64,000 bases of DNA from a virus (IMGVR_UViG_3300022744_000001:130022-194021), one strand, 5' to 3'; positions 2,397-62,874 are shown, numbered from the stretch's first letter. Notes: generated from the sequence alone by a model not told the origin. Program-made: numbers and translations.

Positions 2397-2419
2397 CCTT
2401 CCGGTGTAGGGAGGGCATG
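2397..2419 (+). promoter_or_regulatory. start-proximal promoter-like motif (class 1)
   Basis: CCGGTGTAGGGAGGGCATG ending at the start codon. Confidence 0.45.
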
Positions 2420-3019
2420 CTTTTCTATGACAATGGCGAGAAAATCGAGAAGCCACACGTCTTCCAGCTCTATGACAGCAGCAAAGTGATGGGGGAATAC
2501 CGTTCCTGCATCTGGCTGAATGCGGGTGACCATGACATCTGGATTCGGTTTCGGAACCCGGCGATGGAGCACTCGACGCAGTACGAGGGCCCGGAGTGGC
2601 GTCATCGGGTGACGCTCTCTCAGCGGACGCCGTACCCGTTGATGGTGCCCGAAAGGTGGGATCCGTTTCATGACGGGCAACGGGAGTGGGCAATCCATGG
2701 GGGGCTCAGCTCGTCGTCCATGGAGTACACGACTCCGCTCCTCGGCGGCGTGTGCAAGGTTTCCGCATACAGCAGCTCGGCGCTCAACGCTGTGTGGACG
2801 TCCCCGGGGATGAACTTTTCCATGGTCCCGAGTCAAGCCGGGCACCTGCGGGACATCTTGGTCACGACGTTCGACCAGATGCAAAAGCGCATCTTCGACT
2901 TCGCGGACTTGGTTCAGCAGAAGCGGAGCCCGGCTGCGAAGGTGGCTCTGGGCGGCAAGGTCGAATGCCCGACGCACAAGTACGCATACGACGCGGCCAA
3001 GGGCTGTCCCTGGTGTTGA
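2417..3019 (+). CDS. hypothetical protein, paralogue family A (C-terminal VEC..H..YDA.KGC..C motif)
   Basis: Start follows the CCGGTGTAGGGAGGGCATG motif; shares QYEGPEW and the C-terminal GKVECPTHKYAYDAAKGCPWC motif with the CDS at 25249..25812. Confidence 0.7.
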   Translation: MLFYDNGEKIEKPHVFQLYDSSKVMGEYRSCIWLNAGDHDIWIRFRNPAMEHSTQYEGPEWRHRVTLSQRTPYPLMVPERWDPFHDGQREWAIHGGLSSSSMEYTTPLLGGVCKVSAYSSSALNAVWTSPGMNFSMVPSQAGHLRDILVTTFDQMQKRIFDFADLVQQKRSPAAKVALGGKVECPTHKYAYDAAKGCPWC

Positions 3020-3027
3020 GGTAGGCC

Positions 3028-3213
3028 ATGAACAAGAAGACGAATGACGGGCCGAGTTTCGCCGTTACCAAGACCTGTGACGGTTGCAAGCACTTCGTGG
3101 AGAAGGATGCAAACGACCGTGACGGGGGCAAGATCGGCTACTGCGGGGCCTCCAACAACCAGGTCATCCCCGGTGGGGGCCTCATCACTCCCGCCTGGTG
3201 CCCGAAGAGCTAG
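3028..3213 (+). CDS. small Cys-rich protein
   Basis: 61-aa ORF with CDGC...YCG...WCP (a 4-Cys zinc-ribbon-like pattern). Confidence 0.45.
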   Translation: MNKKTNDGPSFAVTKTCDGCKHFVEKDANDRDGGKIGYCGASNNQVIPGGGLITPAWCPKS

Positions 3214-3494
3214 TTCGCTGCTGCGTTCCCTCGGGCGAGGCGACATTCCGTGTTCCGGTACTGGCAGCCTACGTCCTTGTTCACGGGGCACTCGAGGGCG
3301 ACCAGGGTGTCGTCCACCTTGGCTGTGCACGAGACGTACCCGTTCTGGTCCGTGTCGAATTCCTGGCAGCGAGCCGTGATGTGGGTAGCGTCCGGGTAGA
3401 ACGTCTTGGCCCAGTCGATGGCGTCCGCGTTGCCCACGTGCCGTGCAAAGCATGCGGTGGCGAGAACGATTGTGCAGAGAAGCAGTTGTTTCAT
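3210..3494 (-). CDS. secreted Cys-rich small protein (signal peptide/lipobox-like LATAC)
   Basis: N-terminal MKQLLLCTIVLATAC signal; the D.D..GYVSC...LEC...GC pattern is shared with 38843..39157. Confidence 0.6.
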   Translation of the reverse strand: MKQLLLCTIVLATACFARHVGNADAIDWAKTFYPDATHITARCQEFDTDQNGYVSCTAKVDDTLVALECPVNKDVGCQYRNTECRLARGNAAAN

Positions 3495-3551
3495 GCTTCC
3501 AAGTACACCGGACGCAAACTTTTGCCGGAGGTTTGCGGTGTAATCGATTTC

Positions 3552-4427
3552 ATGTCTCACGAGAAAATCATCGAACTTGGGGCGCAGATTTCAACGCTCC
3601 AACAACAAATCAAGGGTTTGGCGGAGGCCAACAAAAAACGGGACACTCTTGCAGCTGAGGTGTCCCGTCTTGAGGGGGAGGTTGAGAGTCTGGGAAAGTT
3701 GTTGCAGGCAGCTCGGGAGCAGTTGGACAAGTTGGGTCCGCGAGTGGACGGGCAGAAGTTGGTGTTGGAGCTGTCGAGGAAGGAAAGCGAGCTGAAGCGC
3801 CTCATTACCCCTCAACCCATCACTTACTACGAGGCTATCCACGCGGTCATCGAGGACCTTACATCTGTTGGTTATACCCGGCAGGGGGGTTTGAGGTACG
3901 CCTATTTCGCGGGTAGGCCCGGAGAGAAAATCCTTGGTCAAACCTTCGACCAGATGCGTCGTGATGGGTGGCTTATTCGGAGCGCTATCAGGGGGCGTTA
4001 CATTTTTGGTTCAGCTCGTAGCGCTCCGGACATTCAAGCCATACTGGCACGCGTTGTTAGGGCCTACCCTTCGAGTCTTACTTTCGAGGACTACCGGGAG
4101 CAGTGGTACTCAGTGGCTTTTCTAGCTGAACTGGGTTACCTCACGGTTTCGGAGGCGGACCGGATCGTTAGTATGCCCCCGAAATCGTTTACCCGTTTGC
4201 TGCATGAGCTGCATGGCATGGATCTTCAGCAGGCGGCCAAGCATTTCGAGACGTGCTTGATCTCGTCGGGTGAATACGACTTTGTCCTTTTTGGGGCACC
4301 TGTTGCGCGGGAACTATTCGCCAAGGTCCAAAGCTCTCCTCGCGCAATTGGAGTACACCCCTACTCGCTTGTGGAGGGCAAGCTTTGCCGCAATGCCCCA
4401 CAGCCCCAGGCAGTGACGGTCGGTTAG
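3552..4427 (+). CDS. coiled-coil protein, hypothetical
   Basis: GGTGTAATCGATTTCATG motif at the start; N-terminal heptad-rich segment then a globular C-terminal domain. Confidence 0.7.
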   Translation: MSHEKIIELGAQISTLQQQIKGLAEANKKRDTLAAEVSRLEGEVESLGKLLQAAREQLDKLGPRVDGQKLVLELSRKESELKRLITPQPITYYEAIHAVIEDLTSVGYTRQGGLRYAYFAGRPGEKILGQTFDQMRRDGWLIRSAIRGRYIFGSARSAPDIQAILARVVRAYPSSLTFEDYREQWYSVAFLAELGYLTVSEADRIVSMPPKSFTRLLHELHGMDLQQAAKHFETCLISSGEYDFVLFGAPVARELFAKVQSSPRAIGVHPYSLVEGKLCRNAPQPQAVTVG

Positions 4428-4444
4428 CCGGTGTATCTGAGGGC

Positions 4445-5107
4445 ATGTCGAAGATCTATTTTGATCCGAAAACCATCATGAAAATGGGTCGAGTCGGAGT
4501 CAGCGTCAAGTTCGCTTCGCACGAGATGAAGCAAATCGTGCAGGTGGCTTTGAACCGACACAAATCTCAACGAGGGGCGAACCGACACGACCACAGTGTC
4601 AAAAGCAACGAGGGGGTCAAGAACGACCTTATCGGTGCGTTGGGGGAGGTCGCGGTTCGTGATGCGTTTGACTTCAAGGAAGCGGACCACATCACGGTCC
4701 TTCCCATTCCTCAGTGGGAGGCGATGCGGCGGGAGAAGAACCTGACCGACGTGGGCGGTTTCGAGGTGCGCTCGGTGGGTCGTGACCCAGAAGGGAGCCA
4801 GAAGACGAGCCTCATCGCGAAGCAGGACACGGATGCAGGCAAGAAGGACGTCATCTTTGTTCTGGCTGTACCCACGAAGACCTGGGGCCTTTTTGACTCC
4901 ACGGTTTTGGTCATGGGTTGGGCTTATGGTCGGGAGATCATGGTTCCGGAGTACATGGAGTTGAACGTTGACCGCCCAAACTATTTCATGCCCTTGGGTG
5001 ACACACGGTCGATCGAGTCGCTCTATGAGCTTCAGGGTAAGCCGTTCCCCAAGACCTTGCTCGAACAGGACGAAGAGAACTACCGCGACTTGAATCTCGC
5101 CGTGTAG
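4445..5107 (+). CDS. hypothetical protein
   Basis: CCGGTGTATCTGAGGGCATG motif at the start; 220 aa with coherent composition. Confidence 0.7.
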   Translation: MSKIYFDPKTIMKMGRVGVSVKFASHEMKQIVQVALNRHKSQRGANRHDHSVKSNEGVKNDLIGALGEVAVRDAFDFKEADHITVLPIPQWEAMRREKNLTDVGGFEVRSVGRDPEGSQKTSLIAKQDTDAGKKDVIFVLAVPTKTWGLFDSTVLVMGWAYGREIMVPEYMELNVDRPNYFMPLGDTRSIESLYELQGKPFPKTLLEQDEENYRDLNLAV

Positions 5108-6411: not shown

Positions 6412-6890
6412 GGCTTGAACCCTTCCCAATCAACTTCATTCGAATAAACGAGGCGACCTTGCGAGGTATAGTTTACGTCGTGATGGTTGTCGTTCGCATG
6501 AAACCATTGGAGCGCCAGCGTGCGCTCGGGGCCTTCCAAGAGCAAACCGTGTGAAGCTAGTTCGCATCGAATCTCAGACCAATGCACAGTGCCGGGCTTG
6601 CAAGGCTTGTGCACGTACACGACACCATCAAACTCGCTTGTGACCCCCATCGTGTGCTCCTTGTGCTGGTGGAGCCACTCCAAGTGGATGGGCCCGATGC
6701 CATGGGCTTGGAGGCCGAGGTAGAAGTTCCCCTCCTCGAGCAGCTCCTTCAACGCGAGCAGGTCCGGCAAGTGGTTGAGAAGGAACTTCATCGAACCACA
6801 CCCGTTGTCCACGCCCCTCATGGGGCAGGTTTCAGCGCACGTTACGCAGTAGAGGTAGTGGTTGTGCCTTTTGTTTTCGGCCCGCGTCAT
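6408..6890 (-). CDS. hypothetical His/Cys-rich protein
   Basis: 160 aa with an N-terminal CxxCxxxC and a HLEWLHQHKEH His cluster (possible metal site). Confidence 0.6.
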   Translation of the reverse strand: MTRAENKRHNHYLYCVTCAETCPMRGVDNGCGSMKFLLNHLPDLLALKELLEEGNFYLGLQAHGIGPIHLEWLHQHKEHTMGVTSEFDGVVYVHKPCKPGTVHWSEIRCELASHGLLLEGPERTLALQWFHANDNHHDVNYTSQGRLVYSNEVDWEGFKP

Positions 6891-6925
6891 GGTTCCGACT
6901 ACACCACTTCGGTGTCATGTGGGGC

Positions 6926-7225
6926 ATGGCCAAGCCGATCACTCCAAAGGAAGTTCAGGACCTCAAGAACGCAACCTTTCCTGATGAGGTAATCGAGGTT
7001 TTCAACGAGTTGATCGTGGAAAACTGGGATGGGCACAGCGCCACCATCAAGCAAGATGTGGCGGCAGGGCGGATTGCCAAGCGGATGAAGATCACGCGAG
7101 CCAAGGTTTTTGACCGAAGCCTTCTCGACATAGAAGACGTGTTTCAAAAGGCAGGCTGGAAAGTCGATTACGACAAGCCTGGGTACAACGAAACCTACGA
7201 CGCATTTTTCCGATTCACGAAATGA
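6926..7225 (+). CDS. hypothetical protein
   Basis: TTCGGTGTCATGTGGGGCATG motif at the start; 99 aa. Confidence 0.65.
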   Translation: MAKPITPKEVQDLKNATFPDEVIEVFNELIVENWDGHSATIKQDVAAGRIAKRMKITRAKVFDRSLLDIEDVFQKAGWKVDYDKPGYNETYDAFFRFTK

Positions 7226-7252
7226 ACCCGGTGACCAGGTGTTAACCTCGGC

Positions 7253-7453
7253 ATGGACGACGGTGCAAAGGTCATTCTAGCCATTGTGCTCATGATTTTG
7301 GTGGGTGTTGCCTGCTGCTATGATCGCGCGCAGAACGAACAGGTGGAAAAGGCTTGTGTTCAGAAGCATTGCGCGGACGGGTCACACCCTGAGTGGTATC
7401 AGCCGTACAGGAGCCGGGGAATCTGCATTTGCCCGGGCGTTCTTGAGCCTTGA
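7253..7453 (+). CDS. small membrane/Cys-rich protein
   Basis: One transmembrane segment followed by a CC...C..HC...CIC cluster. Confidence 0.4.
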   Translation: MDDGAKVILAIVLMILVGVACCYDRAQNEQVEKACVQKHCADGSHPEWYQPYRSRGICICPGVLEP

Positions 7454-7470
7454 GGTGTACTAGGGGCATG
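7448..7470 (+). promoter_or_regulatory. start-proximal promoter-like motif (class 1)
   Basis: GAGGTGTACTAGGGGCATG; identical 19-mer core to the one at 35833..35853. Confidence 0.45.
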
Positions 7471-7958: not shown

Positions 7959-7977
7959 CTTCCGGTGTAAGCGGGGC

Positions 7978-8547
7978 ATGGATTTCAACGGCTACAAGCT
8001 GACTCGCTCCGACGCTCCCTCATGCTGGAGCAAGGGCGGGAACGGGCACCTGGTGCTCCCTCTCACGGGAGAGCATTTCGTTCGGCTCATCCACTACACG
8101 GACTGCCCGTTCCCGCATCTCGAGGTTTGCGGCCTTGGGGGCGAGGTTCTTGGCTGGTGCCGGATCGGCAAGGATGCGGTCGCTTGGGACAAGGCCCAAC
8201 GGTTGGTTGAGCTTCGGCTCTCTCGTGGAGATGGGCCTCGGGACCTGGCCAACTGGCTCGACGCGTTTCGTGTCCAAGACAGGCGGCCGAGCGATACCCC
8301 AAACGATTTGGTTCGAATTCGCCAGACGGTCGAATCTGTGCTGGGGTCGATGCACTACCTGGTCAAGGCAGTCAAGGACGCAGAAGTCGTCGTCGAATCG
8401 GTGGGGAGAAGGCTGAGCGACGTCACCACAATCAACGTGCACCTGGGCAACTTGAAGTCAAAGGTGTCCCGGTTGCGCGACCTCACCGGGGCGGCTGACT
8501 ATGTGGATCTGGAAGAGAAGCCGCCGACCCAGCCTGACCTTGCGTAG
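7978..8547 (+). CDS. hypothetical protein
   Basis: CCGGTGTAAGCGGGGCATG motif at the start; 189 aa. Confidence 0.65.
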   Translation: MDFNGYKLTRSDAPSCWSKGGNGHLVLPLTGEHFVRLIHYTDCPFPHLEVCGLGGEVLGWCRIGKDAVAWDKAQRLVELRLSRGDGPRDLANWLDAFRVQDRRPSDTPNDLVRIRQTVESVLGSMHYLVKAVKDAEVVVESVGRRLSDVTTINVHLGNLKSKVSRLRDLTGAADYVDLEEKPPTQPDLA

Positions 8548-9605: not shown

Positions 9606-9625
9606 GTTCTGGTGTACCCCTCGGC

Positions 9626-9802
9626 ATGAAGATGAGAGTCACGAAAAAGCGCATCGAAACGATTCGGAGAGAACACACGGACATGGGCGAGCATGGCATT
9701 GATGCCGAGTCCGCTTGGGAGCTAGCCGAAGAGCTACTCAAAGCCGTGGACGAGCGGGATGAGTTGCTTGCCAAGTTGACTGAGGGCGGGTCGAAGGCTT
9801 AG
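9626..9802 (+). CDS. small hypothetical protein (58 aa)
   Basis: Below the ORF-track cutoff; CTGGTGTACCCCTCGGCATG motif directly at its ATG. Confidence 0.3.
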   Translation: MKMRVTKKRIETIRREHTDMGEHGIDAESAWELAEELLKAVDERDELLAKLTEGGSKA

Positions 9803-9857
9803 GGTAGCCCCAGCTCACCTGCCATGCGTAGGAGGAGCAGAGGGGTCGTTCTTGGAA

Positions 9858-9880
9858 ACGGGGGCGGCCCTCGTTTTTTC
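9858..9880 (+). terminator. putative intrinsic terminator
   Basis: ACGGGGG-cgg-CCCTCGT hairpin (one G.U pair) followed by TTTTTT. Confidence 0.35.
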
Positions 9881-9916: not shown

Positions 9917-10288
9917 ATGGCGACGAAGAAACAAGCCCCTCCCCGCTTCCACAAGCTCTTCACCTGGGTTTGCCGGGAGCGCATCGTGGACCTTTTCCCT
10001 ACTGCGGAGCAGTTGGTAGAGGCCCTCACGGTCGAGTCCCTGCCTGACATCGACGTGCCGGGGGAGCTTTACGCGGCCGTCGTGGAGTTCCGGCACCTGC
10101 GGACGGTGGACCGGCTCCGGCGAGCCCAGACCTTCGTGTGGCGGGAGGACAATGCGCTTCAGGCCGACGTGAAGCGCAAAGACATCCTCGAGCGCGTCCC
10201 CAAGCTCACGGACGAACAGGTCGAGCTTCTGTACGTGGCCCTGAGCCGACTGCTTTACGGTCCGCCGCCGAAGGTGGCCAAGGGCTGA
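9917..10288 (+). CDS. hypothetical protein
   Basis: Start at MATKKQ; 123 aa. Confidence 0.6.
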   Translation: MATKKQAPPRFHKLFTWVCRERIVDLFPTAEQLVEALTVESLPDIDVPGELYAAVVEFRHLRTVDRLRRAQTFVWREDNALQADVKRKDILERVPKLTDEQVELLYVALSRLLYGPPPKVAKG

Positions 10289-10294
10289 AAAGAC

Positions 10295-10330
10295 AGAGCC
10301 CCAAGGGTTGGGGCCTCGGGGCTCTTATCC
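10295..10330. terminator. putative terminator hairpin between convergent genes
   Basis: AGAGCCCC...GGGGCTCT perfect 8-bp inverted repeat immediately after the stop at 10288. Confidence 0.5.
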
Positions 10331-10396
10331 CGGCCGTCCTAACGACGACCTCGTGGGCTAGGCCCACGCCCAAGATGGCCGCACCCCCTCCCGCCG

Positions 10397-10693
10397 TCAA
10401 GTGAACGGTTTCGGGTACAGGGGCGCATGAGCCGGGCAGAAGTGGCCCATAGCTCGAGGCTCGCACCGGCCCCCAAACTGCTTGCGCTCCCAGCGATCCC
10501 TGAGCTTGACCATAGGGGCAACATCCACAAACCCTTCGGCCAAAGCCACTTGAAAGACGCTGCGGTGTATTCCTTGAGGTCGAAGCCGACTCACAGCCTC
10601 GAAAGTCAGCTCTTCGTCAATGAAATTGCGCGGGCACTGGTTCCCGTTCTCGTCTTCGTGCTCACAGCGAACGACAGCTTGCAGCGTAATCAT
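10397..10693 (-). CDS. hypothetical protein
   Basis: 98-aa ORF, convergent on the 10295 hairpin. Confidence 0.5.
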   Translation of the reverse strand: MITLQAVVRCEHEDENGNQCPRNFIDEELTFEAVSRLRPQGIHRSVFQVALAEGFVDVAPMVKLRDRWERKQFGGRCEPRAMGHFCPAHAPLYPKPFT

Positions 10694-10844
10694 GCCAAAA
10701 ACCTCACACCTGCTGATAGCCTACCTCATCTGGGGCCTCTTTGCTTTGTGGTTTGGCGGATTTATGTGCGCACATCCACAGTGGTTTGACTGGGTAGGGC
10801 TCCCTCTTGGTTGTTGCTGCGACAAAACGGGGCACTGGTTCTAG
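10692..10844 (+). CDS. small membrane protein
   Basis: Start MPKTSHLLIAYLIWGLFALWF; its ATG overlaps the CAT of the divergent gene's start by 2 nt. Confidence 0.4.
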   Translation: MPKTSHLLIAYLIWGLFALWFGGFMCAHPQWFDWVGLPLGCCCDKTGHWF

Positions 10845-10863
10845 GCGAAATTCGACTCGGCAC

Positions 10864-10913
10864 GGTATAGAACCCTCAACCCCTGCGCGTTTCTAGGGCA
10901 AGAGGGAAAGCCA
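10864..10913 (+). promoter_or_regulatory. class-2 upstream motif (GGTATAGAAC-N11-GCGCGTT-N2-TAG)
   Basis: First of three near-identical upstream elements (also 11172..11220 and 12399..12434). Confidence 0.45.
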
Positions 10914-11165
10914 ATGTCTACGCTGAGTCGCCAGATTGTTGATTCCAACCACTGCCACGAGAATTCGATCACGATTCGCCCGAACGAACACTTGGGCATG
11001 ACGATCGAAATCGACTACAAGCCGCACCCGGCAGGTTGGGTTCGCGAGGTGATGATCGCGTATTTCCAGGGTCCCCTCTACGAGGAGCCCGCGTGGGAAG
11101 GCCCGACGCCCCTGGACCTCGTGCTCTCGAACTTCGCTGAAACCTACCACCAGAAGAACGCGTGA
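10914..11165 (+). CDS. hypothetical protein
   Basis: 83 aa, preceded by the class-2 motif. Confidence 0.6.
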   Translation: MSTLSRQIVDSNHCHENSITIRPNEHLGMTIEIDYKPHPAGWVREVMIAYFQGPLYEEPAWEGPTPLDLVLSNFAETYHQKNA

Positions 11166-11171: not shown

Positions 11172-11220
11172 GTATAGAACGCGCCACCCTCGCGCGTTCA
11201 TAGAGCAAGGAGAAGATGCC
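11172..11220 (+). promoter_or_regulatory. class-2 upstream motif with perfect dyad GAACGCGC-N7-GCGCGTTC
   Basis: GTATAGAACGCGCcaccctcGCGCGTTCaTAG; the 8-bp inverted repeat suggests an operator. Confidence 0.45.
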
Positions 11221-11433
11221 ATGGCAACGCTCAACACGCTCAAGGCCGCTGTCAAAGCCAACGATTACAAGCTCATTGCGGAGAACGTTCGCGGTTTTCG
11301 CAAGGCTGGTTTCAACGCCCGGGAAATCTACCGCATGGCTCTCGCAGCCGACCCTAACCTGGACTTTGACACGTGGACCGACACGGTGGCCACGGCTCTC
11401 GAGAAAAACCCGGAGAACCACAATGCCCGCTGA
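11221..11433 (+). CDS. hypothetical protein
   Basis: 70 aa, helical. Confidence 0.6.
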   Translation: MATLNTLKAAVKANDYKLIAENVRGFRKAGFNAREIYRMALAADPNLDFDTWTDTVATALEKNPENHNAR

Positions 11434-11767: not shown

Positions 11768-12129
11768 ACCAGACGAAGCCGCGGCACGAGGGGAGCAAAC
11801 CGAGGCACCCCGGCGACCTCGTCCTGCCACATGGCCCACGGCCGTACCCAGACCTCTCCCCCAGGCTTGAGCGCCACGTAAATGGCCGCCTTTTCCCCGG
11901 CTACGTAAGCCTTCGAGAGCCCTGCTGGAATGCACACCGCTAGGCCCTCTCGACCTTGGAACACGATGACGCCTGTGGGGATGGCCACCTTGCCGTCGTC
12001 CCCTTGAATCTCGGCCGCTTCGCTGAGCCTTCCAGTGCAAATGACGGCCGCGCCCTCCTCGAAATCCGAGACGATGAGTGCTTCCCCAAGGAAGCCGTAC
12101 GTTCCGCCCTTGTAATGCCGGTAAATCAT
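11764..12129 (-). CDS. DUF1653-family protein
   Basis: N-terminal MIYRHYKGGTYGFLGEA matches the hallmark start of the DUF1653 family. Confidence 0.7.
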   Translation of the reverse strand: MIYRHYKGGTYGFLGEALIVSDFEEGAAVICTGRLSEAAEIQGDDGKVAIPTGVIVFQGREGLAVCIPAGLSKAYVAGEKAAIYVALKPGGEVWVRPWAMWQDEVAGVPRFAPLVPRLRLV

Positions 12130-12146
12130 GCCCGCTTTTACACCGC

Positions 12147-12398: not shown

Positions 12399-12434
12399 GG
12401 TATAGAAACCCGCCCGCTTGCGCGTTCGTAGGAC
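12399..12434 (+). promoter_or_regulatory. class-2 upstream motif
   Basis: GGTATAGAAAcccgcccgcttGCGCGTTcgTAGgacATG. Confidence 0.45.
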
Positions 12435-12824
12435 ATGGAAAACCAATACAAGCGCACCGTCGAAGGCTCGATGCACGAGGCTCTCCTCAACCGTCTCTTG
12501 AAGGTCGGGAACGTGATTCGGGACGCTATCCCGGACCACTTCGCGGCCACTCGTCGCTGGTCGGGCCCGGCCCGGCAGGACCTGCCCCTGACCGTGTACG
12601 TCGAGTGCGAGGGCTACGCCTACGCCGACAACACGACCAAGGCGAACCTCATCGTCATGATCACGTTCGACCCGACCACCTGCACCACGGAAGTGCGGAT
12701 GAGCTACGGCGACGACACCAATCGGGCTATTCACGACCGTCGCACGTTCGCCCTGACCGAGGCCCACATAGCTGAGGCGTCTCTCGAGATGGTTCTTCGC
12801 CAGCTCGGCTCGGTGGTCCGCTGA
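12435..12824 (+). CDS. hypothetical protein
   Basis: 129 aa. Confidence 0.6.
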   Translation: MENQYKRTVEGSMHEALLNRLLKVGNVIRDAIPDHFAATRRWSGPARQDLPLTVYVECEGYAYADNTTKANLIVMITFDPTTCTTEVRMSYGDDTNRAIHDRRTFALTEAHIAEASLEMVLRQLGSVVR

Positions 12825-13424: not shown

Positions 13425-13700
13425 ATGCCCAAACTACGACTTCAATGGGAGGACTACCCCACGCACTCCCAATTTCGCTGTGCTGGCCAACACCTTGAAG
13501 TTTACCCTCAGCAGTCCCATTTGGGTTTGATCAAAGGTTTCCTTTGGATAGCGGGGAAGCGTTCGGGGGTCTCTCGGACCCGTGAGTGGGCCAAATTCCG
13601 GGCGGAGGCCGCGGTGTATGCCAACCTGCTTGCCATGGCCGGTGCGTTCGGGCTTGAGGTAAAACCCTGTGAAGAAAAAGCTGGTAGCGCGAAATCATGA
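13425..13700 (+). CDS. hypothetical protein
   Basis: CGGGGTAGTAGGGGCATG motif at the start. Confidence 0.5.
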   Translation: MPKLRLQWEDYPTHSQFRCAGQHLEVYPQQSHLGLIKGFLWIAGKRSGVSRTREWAKFRAEAAVYANLLAMAGAFGLEVKPCEEKAGSAKS

Positions 13701-13902
13701 GCCAGGGCACCTGGACGAGTTCCGGAAGCTCCTCCTGGGAAAAGTCATTGTCGAGGTCCAAGCAGGCCGAGGTGACGAGGGGGACCACCTGTATTTGCGG
13801 TTGGAAGACCTTCACACAGGTGTGCGCGAGGGTGTAACCGTCTCGGTGGGCTCGATCTACGCTGAGCTGCTGTTCGAGAAGAAACCCAAGAAGTCGGTAT
13901 AG
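13669..13902 (+). CDS. hypothetical protein
   Basis: 77 aa, overlaps the previous gene. Confidence 0.45.
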   Translation: MKKKLVARNHEPGHLDEFRKLLLGKVIVEVQAGRGDEGDHLYLRLEDLHTGVREGVTVSVGSIYAELLFEKKPKKSV

Positions 13903-13931
13903 GGACTCGACCTCTCCCGCGTTCTCAGGGC

Positions 13932-14213
13932 ATGCGTACCAAGAGGACATACAGGGTGGTGAACTTCCGGCTCTTCGGCGTCCGCGGCCGAGAGGTTCTC
14001 GTGCTCCGGGCTGAGGAAGCTCGCGAGGCTCGGGCGCAGGGTGAGCGGCTGGTGCGCGAGGCGTGCATCAACTTCACCGGGCTCAAGGTGCTCGAGACGA
14101 CCTCCGAGGTTCTCTCCGGCTGGACAGGCTCGCTGACCCCCTCCGACGTCTTCTCTTGGGAGGCGGCTTGGGGGCGGCGGTTCGCGAAGAGCCAGGATGC
14201 TCGGTGGCGCTGA
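13932..14213 (+). CDS. hypothetical protein
   Basis: 93 aa, Arg/Glu-rich. Confidence 0.5.
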   Translation: MRTKRTYRVVNFRLFGVRGREVLVLRAEEAREARAQGERLVREACINFTGLKVLETTSEVLSGWTGSLTPSDVFSWEAAWGRRFAKSQDARWR

Positions 14214-14231
14214 CCGGTGTACCTAGCCCCC

Positions 14232-16946: not shown

Positions 16947-16979
16947 GCGAGCGACTACACCGGCGGTGTTATGTTTCGC

Positions 16980-18452: not shown

Positions 18453-18456
18453 GCGC

Positions 18457-48255: not shown

Positions 48256-48262
48256 TCGTGGG

Positions 48263-51417: not shown

Positions 51418-51474
51418 TTTCTAAACTCCCGTTGGGCTGTCTACACCAAACCGAACGTTTTGCCACAAGGAAAC

Positions 51475-51497
51475 GATTCGGTGTAATCGAGGGCATG
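51475..51497 (+). promoter_or_regulatory. start-proximal promoter-like motif (class 1)
   Basis: TTCGGTGTAATCGAGGGCATG. Confidence 0.45.
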
Positions 51498-51797: not shown

Positions 51798-51820
51798 GCT
51801 TGAGGTGGTGTAGTGGGGGC

Positions 51821-52351
51821 ATGCTCATCACCGCAGACCAGCTCATTGCTCATGCTGTTGGCGACTACATCCTCCAATCGGACTGGATGGCCAACACCAA
51901 AACCCAGAAATCCAGCGCGGCCCTCGCGCATGTCCTGACCTACTTCCTCCCCTTCCTGTTCCTCACGACCTCGTGGAAGGCATTGGCGGTCATCATCGGG
52001 ACGCACTTCGTGATCGACCGTTGGCGCTTGGCTCGCTACGTTTGCTGGGCCAAAAACTTCTTGGCACCCAAGTGGATCGTTCCGATTGTCCCGCTTGCCC
52101 AGCCTTTGTCTGGGGGCTCCATCAAGCTCAACGCAGGTCGAGCCGGGGTGAGCGAGGATGACTCCGAGGACAACGAGCAAACCACCATCGCCAAGGTCTC
52201 CAAGCCGATTCGGAACCACCCGTGGTCTGAGTGCTCCGGCACGGGCTACTACAAGGAGCGGCCCCCATTTCTTGCCGTATGGCTGCTCATCGCAGCCGAC
52301 AACATCATGCACGTGATTATCAACGGGCTCGCGCTCAAGTACCTTGGTTGA
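51821..52351 (+). CDS. DUF3307-like membrane protein
   Basis: HAVGDYILQSDWMA matches the DUF3307 N-terminal motif. Confidence 0.55.
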   Translation: MLITADQLIAHAVGDYILQSDWMANTKTQKSSAALAHVLTYFLPFLFLTTSWKALAVIIGTHFVIDRWRLARYVCWAKNFLAPKWIVPIVPLAQPLSGGSIKLNAGRAGVSEDDSEDNEQTTIAKVSKPIRNHPWSECSGTGYYKERPPFLAVWLLIAADNIMHVIINGLALKYLG

Positions 52352-52887: not shown

Positions 52888-52928
52888 TTCCGCGGGTGTG
52901 CGGGGTCGTTCCGGTGTCCAAATCAGAC

Positions 52929-53417
52929 ATGGGGGCAATGACTGAGGTGGACACCCAAGACGAATATATGTGCTGTATTCCGCTACGCAGCACTCTGAAA
53001 ACCACGGTATGCGCCAAGCGCCACCTGATGGCTCGGAGTGATGGGGATTGCGATGAAGGGGTACGCAGCTCAGCGTGTCGTAACTGCCCCACCGGGGAAC
53101 TCAACGTAAGCCTGGTTCAGGTCACCCGTCCAAAGGGGACTCGGGCCTTCCAGGCTTACCAGAAGATCCCTTTGTCCCCTCGAGAATGCGAAACGTGCGG
53201 CCGTGAGTATCAGCCGACAGGGTCGCGCCAGAGGTCTTGCAAGAAACCGGACTGTCAGCCTGTGGTGCCCGGTCCGTTTGCGCCGGAGACAACCCAGGTT
53301 CGTCCCCGTAAAGCTCCCCGGGAGAACCAAGGCGCAAGGGGCGACGAATCAAGGCGACAAGCTTCCGTGGTCCCTCTGAAAGCTCGAGCAACAGCAAAAC
53401 GAACAAAGACCGCATAG
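52929..53417 (+). CDS. Zn-finger protein
   Basis: Multiple CxxC pairs. Confidence 0.5.
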   Translation: MGAMTEVDTQDEYMCCIPLRSTLKTTVCAKRHLMARSDGDCDEGVRSSACRNCPTGELNVSLVQVTRPKGTRAFQAYQKIPLSPRECETCGREYQPTGSRQRSCKKPDCQPVVPGPFAPETTQVRPRKAPRENQGARGDESRRQASVVPLKARATAKRTKTA

Positions 53418-53470
53418 GTACGTACACCAACATCGAGGCGAGATACTAACAGCTCGGTGTCAGGTAAAGC

Positions 53471-54073
53471 ATGAAAAGCGGAAAAGCAAAGCTAGAAAAG
53501 CTGCGCGTGGACTGGCGAGCGATGATTGTCGAGCTGACCCGCAGTGCCTCCGAAGTCCGGATGACCTTGGAGACCTACGCCCACGTGCAGAGGTCTGGCG
53601 GCTTCAACCGCCACAACTTCCAGCCAACGAGCGAGACCGGGGTTTTCGGGCACATGCTCGAGGGGCGACGCGCGAAGGTTGTGGTTGACCAGAAGCTCGA
53701 CGACAACAACATCGTGATTGTCAAGAAGGGAGTTGGGCGACCCCATACCCTTGGCCAACTCGATGAGCTACAGCGGAGAGGGAACACGATTCGGGCGGTT
53801 CCGGTGTCCGCGAAGGCCAAACCACGGAAGCCAACTCAGATCGATCACGCCACAGATCCAGATCACAACACCGTGATACGGGTTAGGCTTGATTTCGTGG
53901 TGGAAATGAAAGGCGACCAGGTGATCCCCGATGCGTTTGGGCCCCAAGTGCGCCAATTTATCTTCCATGGCCTTCAGGGAACCAAAGTCCGTGCACACAA
54001 AGTCCTCCCCGGGACCAAGGCGAGTTGTACGGTAGTTAACATGCAACGCCTCCTCAAAGCGAAAAGAGCCTGA
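53471..54073 (+). CDS. hypothetical protein
   Basis: CTCGGTGTCAGGTAAAGCATG motif at the start. Confidence 0.6.
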   Translation: MKSGKAKLEKLRVDWRAMIVELTRSASEVRMTLETYAHVQRSGGFNRHNFQPTSETGVFGHMLEGRRAKVVVDQKLDDNNIVIVKKGVGRPHTLGQLDELQRRGNTIRAVPVSAKAKPRKPTQIDHATDPDHNTVIRVRLDFVVEMKGDQVIPDAFGPQVRQFIFHGLQGTKVRAHKVLPGTKASCTVVNMQRLLKAKRA

Positions 54074-55419: not shown

Positions 55420-55766
55420 TGGGGTTCTGCCGGGACCGGCCAGCCCACTGCTTCGGCCGCTTTGGCAAGCCGCTCAGCCCAATCCGGCTGAGGGGTCAAG
55501 TCTGTGGGAACCGGGTAGGGAGCAGCGTTGACTCGGCAACGAGCTTCTCGAATCGCCAACCCGATCCGCTCATCGTCCGACTGAACCCCATACCAAACCG
55601 GCTCCACCCCAAACGGCTCGAGCACGGTGGCCAAGGTGTCGATGAATTTGGCAAACCCAGGCTCAAAGAGCAGAGACAACTCAACCTCTTTGGGCAAGCC
55701 ACTATTGCCAAACCGCTCTTTTTCACTAGCGGCTAGGCCGAACCATAACGTTGCCGACACATCCAT
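55389..55766 (-). CDS. hypothetical protein
   Basis: 125 aa. Confidence 0.5.
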   Translation of the reverse strand: MDVSATLWFGLAASEKERFGNSGLPKEVELSLLFEPGFAKFIDTLATVLEPFGVEPVWYGVQSDDERIGLAIREARCRVNAAPYPVPTDLTPQPDWAERLAKAAEAVGWPVPAEPQWYITTRLNL

Positions 55767-55782
55767 AGCAGGTTTCTACACC

Positions 55783-55805
55783 GTTGTGGTGTAATCGAGC
55801 GCATG
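55783..55805 (+). promoter_or_regulatory. start-proximal promoter-like motif (class 1)
   Basis: TGTGGTGTAATCGAGCGCATG. Confidence 0.45.
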
Positions 55806-56592: not shown

Positions 56593-57474
56593 TCACAAAA
56601 GGCCCTGCTTTTTCACAGCTCGCTCCAACTTCAACAGTAGCTCGATGCCTTCGGGTGTTGTCGCCACAAGCACGAGCTTTCTTCGGTGCTCAGTCGCAAT
56701 GTGGTCGTAGCTTTCAGGGTAAGCCCAGCGACAACGTCGGCATACCGCCGGGTCTTTCTGGGTTGTGAAGTTGGGGCAAGCTCGACATTCCTTGTCCTTT
56801 TCTGTGTTGCATGAAGCGCAAACCCCTTGGAAGGCGTCGAGTCCTTCTACCTCATGCAGCTCGTTCTCTACGATTCCATACGGCACACGGTGGTCGGCCT
56901 CTTTGCACGTCTTCTCTCGGCACAATGGGCAAATACCTTCAGTCCGTGCAAACAGCTCCCTCTTCTCGGTCTTTGTCAGGGGCTTTCGCCGCCCAATTCG
57001 TCGAACAAACGTCTCGGGACTCCAACGATAAATGGTCCCGTTTCCATCTGGCCCGCGATACGGAGCGGTGGACAAGGTCACGCCGGTCCGTGTTAGTTCG
57101 AAGACCGCCACGGGGTCATACGGGATTGCTTTGATTTGGTTGGTTGTGACGTAGCCTTGCTCGAACAACAACCCTCGCACTGCCTTCGCCATTCGCACAA
57201 GCCGTCGGTCAAGTACAGCCTCTAGGTACTCGACACAAGACCGGTCAAGTAAATCTTCCACTACCTCGGAGTCAGCTCGAGGTACTTCGGCCAGGATAAG
57301 AGCCCGCCAGCTCGCTCGATCTTCCAACGGAGGGAACGCCCGTTGTTTGGGCCGCATTAAATCGAGAAGCTCCTCCGCCTCGCTTTCCTCCGCCTCAACC
57401 TCTGCGAGCTTAGCAATGGCCCACTGAGGTTCAGGCTTCGGAAGGAACATCTCCAGGTCGTCGTCCTCATCCAT
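56593..57474 (-). CDS. HNH-domain protein with acidic N-terminus and extra Cys cluster
   Basis: GICPLCREKTCKEADHRVPY...GVCASCNTEKD plus CRACPNF...CRRCRW. Confidence 0.65.
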   Translation of the reverse strand: MDEDDDLEMFLPKPEPQWAIAKLAEVEAEESEAEELLDLMRPKQRAFPPLEDRASWRALILAEVPRADSEVVEDLLDRSCVEYLEAVLDRRLVRMAKAVRGLLFEQGYVTTNQIKAIPYDPVAVFELTRTGVTLSTAPYRGPDGNGTIYRWSPETFVRRIGRRKPLTKTEKRELFARTEGICPLCREKTCKEADHRVPYGIVENELHEVEGLDAFQGVCASCNTEKDKECRACPNFTTQKDPAVCRRCRWAYPESYDHIATEHRRKLVLVATTPEGIELLLKLERAVKKQGLL

Positions 57475-57521
57475 AGCTGGAGGAATACACCGACGGGTCG
57501 TAAACGGTGTAGCTCTCCTCC

Positions 57522-57893
57522 ATGAAAATCAGCAGCGAATACGTCAAGCAGATCCAAGACACCTTCGCGAACCACGGGGACTATGACACGGACGACCTTC
57601 TCAGGTGGGTTGAAAGCCTGTGCCAGGCCGTGGAAGAGCGCGATCAGGTGATTGCCAAAGCCCTGGAATTCGCACGAGACGGGCAGGTCGATGGGGCCCA
57701 CCACAAGATGTGGACCATCGACCAGATGGTGCGTGCGTTGACATCGTGCCCCATGGAACAGAAGACGCGCACACTTCGTTCTGGAGAAACCTACCAGAAC
57801 GAAGTGCAGGGGGAGTCTGAAGAGTACAAGAAGTTCGTTAAGGACTACGAGGGAGACGGCGGCGAATACAAGTGGGATGTCGGTATCCCGTGA
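57522..57893 (+). CDS. hypothetical protein
   Basis: CGGTGTAGCTCTCCTCCATG motif at the start. Confidence 0.55.
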   Translation: MKISSEYVKQIQDTFANHGDYDTDDLLRWVESLCQAVEERDQVIAKALEFARDGQVDGAHHKMWTIDQMVRALTSCPMEQKTRTLRSGETYQNEVQGESEEYKKFVKDYEGDGGEYKWDVGIP

Positions 57894-60091: not shown

Positions 60092-60163
60092 AGCCCCAAA
60101 AAAGGATCACCTGCTGAATGAAGGTTCGATTTTTCGGTGTCATTCGCCTATGGAGGCACACAC

Positions 60164-61414
60164 ATGCCGGTAGGCGGTAAAGCAATTGTCTTGGGAGGGG
60201 GCACGTTCTTTCACGTGAGGCCGCATCTGGCCCTAGCCGCCCCCGCATTCGGAACAACGGCGGATCAGATCGGGGCCATGCTCCGGCAAAAGGGGTGGGA
60301 GGACACCACGGTTGTCAAAACCCGCATGGCCGGAGGAGATGCCAGCCTCGTCACGAACAATGACGTGGCCAAACTCCTCAATCTCATCCTGCAAGACCGG
60401 AATGTGAAAGTGCTCGTGATGAACGTAGCGCTGTGCGATTTCGAGGGCTCTATCGCGAACGAGAATGGGCTGACCCTCAGCGGGAAAGACCAACCTCGGC
60501 TCAAGACCTCGGAGGGCGGGCAGGTCATGCAGCTGGTTCCGGCGGACAAGCTCCTGGGCCGCATCCGGAAAGAGCGCAAGGACATTTTCCTGGTCGGGTT
60601 CAAAACGACCGCAGGGGCGAGCTACGAAGAGCAATACCGAGCCGGGCTCGAGCTGCTCAAGAAGTCCTCGTGCAACCTGGTTTTCGCGAACGACGTGCAA
60701 ACCCGCCAGCAAATGATCATCACGCCGGAGCAAGCGATCTACGGCGAATCCATGCACAGGTATGAGGCGCTTGAGCTGCTGGCTCAAATGACCACGGAGC
60801 GCGCCAACCTCACGTTCACCCGTTCCACCGTAGTCGAGGGCAAGGCAGTGCCCTGGAGTGCGACAGAGGTCCCCGCCTCTTTGCGCAAGGTCGTGGACCA
60901 CCTGATCAAGCGAGGGGCCTACAAGCCGTTCCTGGGCTCAACCGTCGGGCACTTCGCGGTGAAGGTGGCCGAGGGCCGGTTCCTCACCTCGATTCGCAAA
61001 TCGAACTTCAACAAGCTGGACGAGACCGGGCTCGTTCTGGTGGAGTCGATGGGCAACGACCGAGTCATCGCCCACGGGGCTCGACCCAGTGTCGGCGGGC
61101 AGTCCCAGCGGCTGATCTTCGGGGATCACCCGGACACCGACTGCATCGTCCACGCACACGTGCCTTTGCGCGACGAGGCCGGGGTCATTCCGATCGTCCC
61201 CCAGCGCCCCTACGAGTGTGGCTCGCACGAATGCGGGAAAAACACGAGCGAAGGTCTCCACGACTTCGGAGGCGGGCTCAAGGCCGTCATGCTAGACCAG
61301 CATGGGCCAAACGTCGTGTTCAATCGCAACATGGACCCCGACCGTGTGATCGAGTTCATCGAGCGAAATTGGGACCTGACCCGAAGCACGGATGGGGTAC
61401 TGACAGCTCCATGA
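60164..61414 (+). CDS. fusion protein: CoaB-like (phosphopantothenate-cysteine ligase fold) N-domain + class II aldolase/adducin-like C-domain
   Basis: N-terminus: GGGTFFHVRP...TTVV and ...IFLVGFKTTAGASYEEQYRAGLELLKKSSCNLVFANDV parallel the CoaB GGT..VR and VGFAAET...LDLICANDV motifs. C-terminus: RPSVGGQSQRLIFGDHPDTDCIVHAHVP parallels the class II aldolase PSSE..H..IY..RPDV.AVVHTHS metal-site motif. Confidence 0.7.
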   Translation: MPVGGKAIVLGGGTFFHVRPHLALAAPAFGTTADQIGAMLRQKGWEDTTVVKTRMAGGDASLVTNNDVAKLLNLILQDRNVKVLVMNVALCDFEGSIANENGLTLSGKDQPRLKTSEGGQVMQLVPADKLLGRIRKERKDIFLVGFKTTAGASYEEQYRAGLELLKKSSCNLVFANDVQTRQQMIITPEQAIYGESMHRYEALELLAQMTTERANLTFTRSTVVEGKAVPWSATEVPASLRKVVDHLIKRGAYKPFLGSTVGHFAVKVAEGRFLTSIRKSNFNKLDETGLVLVESMGNDRVIAHGARPSVGGQSQRLIFGDHPDTDCIVHAHVPLRDEAGVIPIVPQRPYECGSHECGKNTSEGLHDFGGGLKAVMLDQHGPNVVFNRNMDPDRVIEFIERNWDLTRSTDGVLTAP

Positions 61415-61920
61415 AGGACACCTACTGCTCCCATTGTGGCGCTCTCCACCAGGACGATGACGCCTACCCTCGCAAGTGCCGCGAGTGCTTCGAGTACGTC
61501 TATCAGAACCCAACCCCTGTGGTAGTGGTTCTGTTGCCGATTGGGGAAGGGCTTCTGACCGTTCGCCGCGCTATCCCGCCGCAGGTAGGTCAACTCTGCT
61601 TGCCCGGGGGCTTCCAGGACATCGAGACCTGGCGCAACGGGTGCGCGCGAGAACTCAAGGAGGAGGCTGGCATCGTTGTGGACCCGAACGCGATCCAGCT
61701 GTTTCGTGAACCCTGCTCCACTGCTTACTGCGACATTCAGCTCATCTTCGGGCTCGCTCCCGGCTTTGCCTCGGAGGAGGAACTCCGCGCACAGGCCACG
61801 CCCCATGACGACGAAGTTAGTGAGTTGGTCGTGATTTACGAGGACTTTGGGGAGCTAGCGTTCCCCACTCACACGGAGATGGCTCGAGCCTACTTCGAAG
61901 GACGCCTTCAGAAGACGTGA
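61411..61920 (+). CDS. NudC-like Nudix hydrolase with N-terminal Zn-ribbon
   Basis: CSHCG...CREC then the Nudix box GGFQDIETWRNGCARELKEEAGI; ATGA overlap with the upstream gene. Confidence 0.8.
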   Translation: MKDTYCSHCGALHQDDDAYPRKCRECFEYVYQNPTPVVVVLLPIGEGLLTVRRAIPPQVGQLCLPGGFQDIETWRNGCARELKEEAGIVVDPNAIQLFREPCSTAYCDIQLIFGLAPGFASEEELRAQATPHDDEVSELVVIYEDFGELAFPTHTEMARAYFEGRLQKT

Positions 61921-62201
61921 AGTACGACCTGTACCCAGTGTGGATGTGGGTTCACCAGAAAGAGGGGTTCGTTCGAAAAGAGCGCCCTTCAATGGATCCC
62001 TCTAACTGGGCACAGGGGATCGTGTGGTACGAGATTCGCGACACGGAAGGCCGAATCCTGGATTCGCAGTACACCTACGAAAGCGCCATGAAGGCTCTGG
62101 AAACGGTTTTCGAGCTGGATTCAATACTACAGGCGGTGCGAGACCATGCCCGACTTCATCCTGACCCCAACGAAGCTCCTCAATCCGAAGGACATCCGTA
62201 G
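61917..62201 (+). CDS. hypothetical protein
   Basis: GTG start overlapping the Nudix gene's stop. Confidence 0.4.
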   Translation: MKYDLYPVWMWVHQKEGFVRKERPSMDPSNWAQGIVWYEIRDTEGRILDSQYTYESAMKALETVFELDSILQAVRDHARLHPDPNEAPQSEGHP

Positions 62202-62472
62202 CGTAGACCTCTCTCAGCTTGGAGAGGGCTTTGTCCACCTGGAGACGTTCGGGGGCGAGCGCGAGACACTCACGGGGCCCCAGGCCATCGAGGCCGTCAT
62301 GGCTCTTCGCCCCTCCGCGCTCGAGGGCCATCGCCTCAAATGGCCGAGGCACACCTGGGCGCTCCACAACCTGGTCGGGCACCCGCTCATGCAGCTCTTG
62401 GCGTTCGTCAAGCTCTACAAAGCAGCCATGTGGGTGCACGATGTGACTGTCCCGAAACCAAAATCGGTGTAG
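62146..62472 (+). CDS. hypothetical protein
   Basis: 108 aa. Confidence 0.5.
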   Translation: MPDFILTPTKLLNPKDIRSVDLSQLGEGFVHLETFGGERETLTGPQAIEAVMALRPSALEGHRLKWPRHTWALHNLVGHPLMQLLAFVKLYKAAMWVHDVTVPKPKSV

Positions 62473-62481
62473 TTTCCGGGC

Positions 62482-62874
62482 ATGCCAGACACGTTTGACT
62501 TCAAAGCGGGAGACCTCGTTCGAATCGCCGTTCAACCGGCGGACCAACTCGCGCAAATTGTAGGGAAAGTTGGGATCCTCAACGAGGTTGACGAAAGGAG
62601 CGCTTCCATTTCCGCGTTCAACTTGGATGGGCGGGGCAATGGGGCGGGAACCGTCCCCCTTTCCTGCCTGGTCCTCGAGACCCGCCCCGAGTGGGTTCGA
62701 GCCAAGCAACTCCGGGAGGAAGAGCAGGCTCGGTACAATGCTCGAGCGGACGCCGCCGCCGCGAAGTGGGACAAGAGCGTGGATGAGGTAGCCCAGAAAT
62801 ACGGGGTCTCTGCTCTGACCGCCGTGTGCATCTACCAGGACCTCAGCGCGGCCCACCGAGACAGCTGGCGCTAG
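62482..62874 (+). CDS. hypothetical protein
   Basis: ATCGGTGTAGTTTCCGGGCATG motif at the start. Confidence 0.55.
   Translation: MPDTFDFKAGDLVRIAVQPADQLAQIVGKVGILNEVDERSASISAFNLDGRGNGAGTVPLSCLVLETRPEWVRAKQLREEEQARYNARADAAAAKWDKSVDEVAQKYGVSALTAVCIYQDLSAAHRDSWR

Follow-up and report, generated by a model that had tools for sequence, protein, structure and literature searches.

The late promoters of bacteriophage T4 consist of TATAAATA at -10 and are read by gp55 with gp33 and the gp45 clamp. The Thermus phage phiYS40, a 152-kb AT-rich phage whose host is rich in leaderless genes, depends on the host RNA polymerase and -10-type promoters. Most of its middle and late mRNAs are leaderless, according to the summary of Sevostyanova et al. 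(2007) in PMC3594737. In Deinococcus, a -10 element adjoining open reading frames (ORFs) drives leaderless genes (PMC12340547). Among giant phages, the late promoters of AR9 and phiKZ have the motifs AACA-N6-T-A/G and TATG (PMC5312081); the 5' untranslated regions of AR9 are 26-491 nucleotides (nt) long, and no leaderless transcript of phiKZ was detected (PMC8244752). Jumbo phages without a polymerase of their own usually encode sigma factors, of a minimal type and an RpoD-like type (PMC7824862). Phage transcripts without a leader, -10 elements next to ORFs and phage promoters made of a -10 alone are already known, and transcription of huge phages beyond the phiKZ and AR9 groups is almost unstudied. 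Here we analyse a stretch of 64,000 nt (the window) from the viral sequence IMGVR_UViG_3300022744_000001 (positions 130022-194021), in which a short motif with the core c-GGTGTA (class I) abuts many start codons. These sites are likely to be compact promoters without a -35 element that give rise to leaderless mRNAs and are read by a probably phage-encoded factor.

Exact protein matches place the window at positions 7117-71116 of the 448,224-bp metagenomic contig ena:ERZ27252002:k141_47206, and also within a 90-kb Logan contig. As a preliminary description of the sequence had noted, the motif abuts many start codons, and it does so far beyond chance: GGTGTA-N9-ATG occurs 19 times against 0.12 expected from dinucleotide shuffles, and GGTGTA-N8-10-ATG 22 times on the plus strand and 11 times on the minus strand, where Markov simulations predict ~0.22 for each strand. 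The bare hexamer is present in 64 copies (13.2 +/- 3.3 expected from dinucleotide shuffles). Independent gene starts were taken from the gene calls of a public collection, which recognize 125 genes in the window; seven starts were moved to the motif-adjacent codon. Within 60 nt upstream of the independently called starts GGTGTA ranks first among hexamers, with 38 of its 64 copies located there (3.4 expected, p = 1.6e-26), an enrichment that the preliminary description had led one to expect. Motif-plus-start sites open 54 ORFs of at least 45 amino acids (aa), and 36 of these match independently called gene starts exactly.

Among 57 aligned sites, C precedes the hexamer in 38, and the last A of GGTGTA gives way to T at 11 sites and to C at 5. 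From the first G of the motif to the start codon's A, the spacing d measures 14, 15 or 16 nt at 11, 29 and 11 sites, respectively (51 of the 57; mode 15). GGGC directly before the ATG is moderately conserved (G 30/57, G 33/57, C 35/57) and, when the spacing varies, stays fixed relative to the ATG and not to the hexamer, which yields C(-1)A(+1), a pyrimidine/purine start context. Upstream of the C of the motif, conservation is absent throughout positions -30 to -2, each of which carries less than 0.15 bit of information (57 sites). A palindromic regulator site was considered and rejected, single class I sites not being palindromic. Upstream genes very often end 1-5 nt ahead of the hexamer, as the stop codons in TAGcGGTGTA, TAGgcGGTGTA and TGAccGGTGTA show, both throughout the window and in loci L023, L054, L065, L071 and L075, and genes are packed as stop-motif-N9-ATG units with gaps of 17-23 nt.

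Several particulars of the preliminary description need revision. Of its consensus, (C/T)CGGTGTA followed by GGGCATG, the c-GGTGTA core stands, but the preceding (C/T)C is not fixed and GGGC is only moderately conserved. Sites 7468 and 35851, given as identical 19-mers, share an identical 17-mer, and 46707, 51495 and 55803, given likewise, are similar but non-identical. Hexamers at the right spacing were found at 28 of the 33 positions listed (21 GGTGTA and 7 GGTGTC or GGTGTT, with 40043 counted as 40046, d = 15). Three of the instances listed are something other than this motif, and four positions need correction: 9009, where the hexamer is only 9 nt from the ATG; 18957, which belongs to a second class described below (GTATAG-N15-CGCGTT); 13425, a GGGGTA variant on an ORF that no gene caller predicted; and 60150, which opens a 7-codon ORF, the real gene starting at 60164 behind GGAGG at a site that looks leadered. 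Nor is the motif almost exclusive to the plus strand: class I occupies both strands, with at least 16 minus-strand sites, at the gene starts 57474, 55766, 54832, 53415, 47667, 40781, 35356, 26732, 21758, 16946, 15444, 12129, 6890, 5663, 3494 and 2118.

The class I motif stands against the start codon of 46 of the 125 genes (~37%). A properly spaced GGAG-type Shine-Dalgarno (SD) tetramer precedes only 4 of these 46 genes, versus 40 of the 79 others (random rate 13%; Fisher p = 9e-7), in agreement with the earlier proposal of leaderless mRNAs from motif-led genes and conventional sites at some of the others. Eighteen of the 46 motif genes lie at divergent junctions, and the others follow a same-strand gap with a median of 18 nt, room just for the motif. 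Among non-motif genes with a same-strand upstream neighbour, the gap is at most 5 nt in 32 of 56, mostly of the ATGA type. Two expression regimes are real, as had been proposed, but they are set by position in the transcription unit and not by strand; the gene at 33695, assigned in that proposal to the minus-strand regime, is a plus-strand gene.

Eight divergent junctions have an element on each side, and in six of them both hexamers abut start codons, the two ATGs being 30-57 bp and the two hexamers 0-27 bp apart. These back-to-back pairs (minus-strand gene first, d = 15 unless stated) are ATG 3494 (3492-3509, 94 aa) with ATG 3552 (3537-3554, 291 aa); ATG 6890 (6888-6905, 160 aa) with ATG 6926 (GGTGTC, 6911-6928, 99 aa; the collection's call is 6917), hexamers 5 bp apart; ATG 16946 (16944-16961, 119 aa) with ATG 16980 (GGTGTT, 16965-16982, 104 aa), hexamers 3 bp apart; ATG 35356 (GGTGTT, 35354-35371, 103 aa, weak RHH_1 match) with ATG 35387 (35372-35389, 148 aa), hexamers touching; ATG 55766 (d = 16, 55764-55782, 125 aa) with ATG 55803 (55788-55805, 192 aa, HNH), hexamers 5 bp apart; and ATG 57474 (d = 17, 57472-57491, 293 aa) with ATG 57522 (d = 16, 57506-57524, 123 aa). 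Such spacing leaves little or no room for any other upstream element, and because divergent genes each need a promoter and nothing else is conserved there, the motif is read as the promoter. Scans of the window for consensus sigma-70 promoters remain at chance level (5 versus 3.7 and 3 versus 3.9), and intrinsic terminators are not enriched over chance in the window.

The preliminary description assumed a single promoter class; a second, rarer class, which came to notice during reading of intergenic regions, has the same start-site geometry. Class II has the form GTATAG-N15-C(G/A)CGTT-N8-A and occurs in eight copies, six in the window (0.00 expected) and two in the left flank of the contig (L124:4350-4390 and L124:5139-5190), all within the first ~26 kb of the 448-kb contig (the window up to ~19 kb, plus the left flank). 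Relative to the fixed A, GTATAG lies at -35 to -30 and CGCGTT at -14 to -9, the latter occupying the place of GGTGTA, 14 nt before the fixed A. This A is the A of the ATG in four of the eight copies, and in the window these leaderless forms, CGCGTT-N8-ATG, precede ATG 12435 (12400-12437), ATG 13932 (13897-13934) and ATG 18957 (18922-18959), all on the plus strand. In the other four copies the A is the first base of a leader of 11-14 nt composed of AGGAG or AAGGAG and a spacer, followed by ATG: in the window the leaders are AAGGAGAGAUCG before ATG 845 (CACGTT; 843-892, minus strand), AAGAGGGAAAGCCA before ATG 10914 (CGCGTT; 10865-10916, plus strand) and AAGGAGAAGAUGCC before ATG 11221 (CGCGTT; 11172-11223, plus strand). 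The 8-nt spacer ends in (A)GGGC or AGAGC in leaderless and leadered forms alike. Since the fixed A is either that of an ATG or the beginning of an SD leader, the invariant point behaves as a transcription start and not as a start codon, and the geometry indicates that the G-rich spacer is part of the promoter and not of translation.

Class I hexamers may also precede leaders. Seven copies of GGTGTA or GGTGTC (27828, 49455, 24229, 51447, 60136 and the pair 38811/38832) stand 28-36 nt ahead of a start codon, and a G-rich, SD-like run intervenes; at such a distance a ribosome-positioning role would make no sense. The candidate leadered promoters are located 36 nt before GTG 27864 with an intervening GGGG run (27828-27866, plus strand), serving the ABC-transporter-like cluster 27864-35135; 35 nt before ATG 49490 with AAGGGGG (49455-49492, plus strand); 35 nt before ATG 24194 with AAGGGA (24192-24229, minus strand); and 30 nt before ATG 51417 with GGGAG (51415-51447, minus strand). 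At 38796-38845, two candidate leadered promoters form a crossing divergent pair, TACACC for the minus-strand gene (GTG 38798, GAGG between) and GGTGTC for the plus-strand gene (ATG 38843, GGGGGA between). At 60136-60166 (plus strand), GGTGTC-N8-A(60150) is followed by the 14-nt leader AUGGAGGCACACAC with GGAGG and then by ATG 60164 (416 aa).

From the sequence we infer promoter action on DNA, a start base and a type of recogniser. The c-GGTGTA core would be the sole recognition element of a compact promoter without a -35, and transcription would start 8-10 bp past the hexamer, at the A (GGGC|A) that follows a run rich in G and closed by a C. In most cases this A would be the A of the ATG, yielding an mRNA with no leader or a few bases, as the preliminary description had supposed of transcripts beginning at or within a few bases of the ATG. 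With the A of the ATG as start, the hexamer would occupy about -15 to -10; with the first G of GGGC as start, about -11 to -6. Motif-led mRNAs, having no SD site, would enter the leaderless route, in which the ribosome binds the 5'-terminal AUG, and non-motif genes would be internal to operons, overlapping or abutting the upstream gene or bearing an ordinary GGAG-type SD site. The class II promoter would use the same start-site geometry.

Some observations weigh against this proposal or some part of it. A start at one of the G residues of GGGC, giving a leader of 1-4 nt, would fit the sites equally well, and spacer ends are less regular at the class I sites that appear leadered than in class II. 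About 20 GGTGTA copies are intragenic or have no obvious target, where ~13 are expected by chance. A bias in start codons is not significant (ATG in 43 of 46 motif genes versus 66 of 79 others, p = 0.16). Terminators are not enriched, so that the ending of many short transcription units lacks an explanation. Neither the ~80 kb examined of this genome nor 1.26 Mb of further loci yielded a gene for a sigma factor or an RNA polymerase.

Were the motif to act in RNA, recruiting ribosomes in place of an SD site and recognised by the ribosome itself or a translation factor that the phage encodes, mRNAs would start further upstream. The fixed short distance between motif and start codon and the exclusion of SD sites agree with such a role, GGUG could pair with CACC of the 16S 3' tail, and the anti-SD pairing energy upstream of motif genes is -4.5 kcal/mol versus -3.2 kcal/mol for random sequence; Al-Shayeb et al. 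(2020) also reportedly found translation genes in huge phages. However, the invariant U and A after GGUG break the anti-SD pairing, for which GGUGAU is required, and the gap of ~11 nt from GGUG to AUG exceeds SD spacing. Divergent pairs whose ATGs are 30-47 bp apart would then need promoters buried in the coding sequence across the junction, a region without any other conservation. Seven hexamers stand far upstream of starts that have an SD of their own, the class II hexamer precedes an SD-bearing leader in half of its sites with unchanged geometry, and overlapping gene junctions are largely without the motif. We consider a signal in RNA unlikely. The same divergent genes count against an RNA-processing signal, at which long transcripts would be cleaved by an endoribonuclease immediately ahead of the AUG, so that mRNAs would become leaderless only after transcription: the origin of their transcripts is left without account. 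Long read-through transcripts are likely since terminators are not enriched, the motif often closely follows an upstream stop codon, and the window encodes genes of RNA-end metabolism (Tpt1, RNA ligase, NADAR and a phosphoesterase), all of which would suit processing; but no nuclease candidate was found among the genes examined, and the bipartite class II element, with its -35/-10-like spacing and SD-first leaders, is typical of promoters. Processing appears to us very improbable.

A promoter read by the unmodified host holoenzyme, with a housekeeping or an alternative sigma factor, would imply a host rich in leaderless genes with the same signal. The lack of a phage sigma factor or polymerase in the ~80 kb is consistent with this, and TGTA/TGTC and CGTT presumably resemble the -10 elements of extracytoplasmic function (ECF)-type sigma factors. 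The housekeeping promoters of proteobacteria are TTGACA/TATAAT-like, and an SspB homologue in the window suggests a proteobacterial host; the hexamer is not TANNNT and has no -35. The -10 element that adjoins ORFs in Deinococcus-Thermus hosts offers a precedent for host-driven leaderless genes (PMC12340547), but the motif described here follows one giant-phage lineage across GC contents from 54% to 65%, and DUF3307 orthologues of unrelated smaller phages are SD-led. Recognition by the host enzyme alone is accordingly, in our judgement, rather improbable. Returning to a phage-encoded factor acting at a compact promoter, the earlier suggestion of such a factor is plausible. To our knowledge, the class I consensus is unlike sigma-70, sigma-54 or any known phage promoter, which suggests a phage-encoded sigma-like factor or polymerase.

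Among the genes of the ~80 kb, Pfam and tblastn with RpoD and RpoE gave no gp55-like sigma factor, gp33 or sliding clamp, gp55 itself not having been a query; the RpoD and RpoE query sequences were approximate and gave no match in the family, and split beta/beta' polymerase subunits were not seen in the same ~80 kb. A -10-only class together with a bipartite class would fit a pair of minimal and RpoD-like sigma factors.

Known promoter types were compared with class I and set aside. As a sigma-70 -10 element (TAnnnT/TATAAT), for which TGTANT had been proposed, the motif has its T and A conserved but shows no preference for T 4 nt after the A, and the conserved last T and the -35 that this identification implies are missing. 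For a -35 (TTGACA 16-18 bp upstream), no position from -30 to -2 exceeds 0.13 bit, and the back-to-back pairs leave 0-14 bp upstream. Sigma-54 promoters place GG at -24 and GC at -12, 10 bp apart, and start ~12 bp further downstream; here the distance from GG to GC is 13, and the start would fall in the coding sequence. In an SD site, pairing with the 16S 3' tail 5-9 nt before the start, only GGUG could take part, with the interruption and the gap noted above. The T4 late consensus does not match the class I sequence, and the phiKZ/AR9 late consensus differs from it (PMC5312081).

A close parallel in arrangement is the ORF-adjacent -10 element of Deinococcus-Thermus and also Actinobacteria, likewise a single short element a few bases upstream of the start codon at strict spacing, whose genes lack SD sites alongside a parallel SD-led set (here 4/46 versus 40/79); theirs, however, is TANNNT read by the host housekeeping sigma factor, whereas here cGGTGTA has no conserved final T, belongs to a phage genome and is shared by a lineage (PMC12340547). 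Like this phage, phiYS40 is large and, as far as the summary cited above describes it, has a temporal class that is mostly leaderless, implying dependence on leaderless translation; unlike phiYS40, the genome here is 448 kb with 60% GC in the window, a new consensus and a probable proteobacterial host. T4 late promoters and the sigma systems of group 2 jumbo phages (PMC7824862) resemble class I in being phage-specific, with one element near -10, no -35 and dozens of copies per genome; the host core polymerase with a minimal phage sigma reads them, as it may read class I. Their sequence is unrelated, and T4 late mRNAs have SD-bearing leaders. The late promoters of the AR9/phiKZ non-virion RNA polymerases share with class I a very short motif ~10 bp before a purine start, the absence of a -35 and a giant-phage setting, but their motifs are others and those phages encode split beta/beta' polymerases.

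The same motif is present in related phage genomes. A degenerate motif scan of IMG/VR returned mostly chance matches, and the motif-dense loci all came from giant contigs: 3300048599_000213 (312 kb), 3300035182_002586 (529 kb), 3300037313_001869 (435 kb) and 3300012988_000016 (309 kb). In motif-dense loci the top upstream k-mer is again GTGTA/GGTGT, and the motif recurs across IMG/VR contigs of 275-529 kb with GC contents from 54% to 65%. The back-to-back layout is also found in the related contigs L071, L065 and L127. At the DUF3307 gene (51821) the motif is kept at the orthologues in L071 (a 312-kb contig, 45% identity) and L127 (a 78-kb contig, 61% identity), and in L127 the divergent partner of the orthologue carries the motif too. 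In L130, a 275-kb contig, the DUF3307 orthologue is SD-led, and four other motif sites have 16-nt spacing. Relatives found through the ABC cluster (L001-L003 and L057) show no GGTGTA enrichment. The motif is a trait of one lineage and not of megaphages generally. Searches of IMG/VR gave no match to the exact 18-mer of site 51480, so that this phage itself would be absent from that collection, and none to the class II element with its spacer.

The remaining class I sites abutting start codons are as follows. On the plus strand, d is 14 before ATG 2417 (GGTGTA, 2403-2419, 200 aa, identical to the independent call), 7468 (7454-7470, 92 aa), 7978 (7964-7980, 189 aa), 35851 (35837-35853, 63 aa), 41559 (41545-41561, 130 aa), 48263 (48249-48265, 166 aa, NADAR) and 51821 (51807-51823, 176 aa, DUF3307). 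It is 15 before ATG 4445 (4430-4447, 220 aa), 9626 (9611-9628, 58 aa), 20698 (20683-20700, 80 aa), 23167 (23152-23169, 114 aa, motif within the 3' end of the upstream gene), 39181 (39166-39183, 79 aa), 40046 (40031-40048, 107 aa), 43473 (43458-43475, 165 aa) and 51495 (51480-51497, 100 aa), and 16 before ATG 14232 (14216-14234, 158 aa) and 62482 (62466-62484, 130 aa). The variant GGTGTT precedes, also on the plus strand, ATG 3028 (d = 16, 3012-3030, 61 aa, identical to the independent call), 7253 (d = 15, 7238-7255, 66 aa), 18457 (d = 15, 18442-18459, 156 aa), 22185 (d = 17, 22168-22187, 122 aa) and 45611 (d = 15, 45596-45613, 87 aa), the last being the first gene of the Tpt1 operon; GGTGTC precedes ATG 37227 (d = 15, 37212-37229, 69 aa) and 53471 (d = 15, 53456-53473, 200 aa). 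On the minus strand, d is 15 before ATG 12129 (12127-12144, 121 aa), 21758 (21756-21773, 85 aa), 26732 (26730-26747, 92 aa) and 47667 (47665-47682, a calcineurin-like phosphoesterase of 291 aa), 16 before ATG 15444 (15442-15460, 102 aa, in a stretch without retrieved gene calls) and 14 before GTG 40781 (40779-40795, 142 aa).

Motif-led ORFs of 60-162 aa that both gene finders left uncalled are located at 52929-53417 and 13425-13700 on the plus strand and at 2118-1906, 5663-5481 and 53415-53122 on the minus strand. The first of these is a 162-aa ORF behind GGTGTC (d = 16, 52913-52931, plus strand), and a missed gene probably accounts for the 583-bp "intergenic" gap 52888-53470. A class I site without any mismatch, GGTGTAatcgaggcATG (46693-46709, plus strand, d = 14), precedes ATG 46707 and an uncalled ORF of 71 aa; it lies just past a gene end, and 46693-46922 is directed at the convergent phosphoesterase gene (46792-47667, minus strand) and runs antisense to its 3' end, so that site 46693 may be an antisense promoter or belong to a small overlapping gene. 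The motif could serve to correct gene annotation, and it already flags ORFs overlooked by gene callers.

The source of the window is a megaphage and not a cellular chromosome. No nucleotide-level relatives of the window were found among 50,697 deposited phage genomes, and the window contains no tRNA genes and no Rfam matches. Small ORFans predominate and few genes are recognisable; Pfam identifies a T4_Y16D domain protein, SspB, PadR, Tpt1, NADAR, HNH, NUDIX, RNA ligase and an AcrVA2-like protein (37644-38798, minus strand). The 793-aa protein encoded directly to the right of the window is ~34% identical to a protein of Vi01-like phages. The SspB homologue, a ClpXP adaptor, is encoded at 42991-43428 (minus strand) and the PadR-type regulator at 42720-43019 (plus strand); a phage-borne SspB suggests a proteobacterial host, and its only three relatives in 5.8 billion proteins, all on phage-like contigs, give no host clue.

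The block 27864-35135 is operon-like and without the motif, and encodes two coiled-coil/membrane proteins, a 562-aa substrate-binding/OmpA-domain protein, an ABC permease and an ABC ATPase, 43-57% identical to counterparts in other IMG/VR giant contigs. Homologues of the binding-protein/OmpA gene are 26% identical in Bacillus phage G, the Lak megaphages and an uncultured phage of 735 kb; for those in IMG/VR contigs of 257 and 368 kb, identity reaches 43-54%. A cluster of RNA-end and NAD genes (45611-48763 and 61411-64000) comprises Tpt1, an RNA 2'-phosphotransferase (45871-46476), the phosphoesterase (46792-47667, minus strand), NADAR (48263-48763), NUDIX (61411-61920) and an RNA ligase (from ~63291), which suggests an RNA repair or anti-defence module; a peptide-pattern method found no relatives of the phosphoesterase in IMG/VR. 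Two strong GC-rich hairpins with T-tails on opposite strands, at 9842-9871 (plus) and 10295-10325 (minus), flank the gene 9917-10288 and may be real terminators. The adjacent 625 bp without a called gene (10289-10913), with a class II promoter at the end, may hold a non-coding region.

What is new here is both consensus sequences, their use at ~37% of the genes in a 448-kb phage with ordinary SD sites elsewhere, and the sharing of the class I motif by uncultivated phages of 275-529 kb. Our literature searches found nothing linking leaderless expression with megaphages and only primer matches for GGTGTA, and leaderless mRNAs go without mention in a 2026 review of jumbo phages. With two new promoter consensuses, a search for the sigma factor or polymerase that fits them could be guided. 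It is conceivable, as a tentative extension, that a lineage of 275-530 kb phages maintains a private channel of expression, in which, for more than one-third of genes, a phage-encoded factor needing no -35 would place the first transcribed base precisely at the AUG, and the messages, bypassing SD sites, would be translated by a 70S/IF2-type leaderless route, possibly favoured by phage factors, much as phiYS40 shifts the levels of IF2 and IF3. Such a channel would be without a described precedent as a programme dominated by leaderless messages in a megaphage whose host uses SD sites and is probably proteobacterial, and it would bring a new promoter specificity comprising cGGTGTA and the GTATAG/CGCGTT class. 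If the promoter reading is true, phage translation would be separated from the SD-dependent route of the host, and transcription units and genuine start codons could be recognised by a simple rule of sequence across an uncultivated giant-phage lineage.

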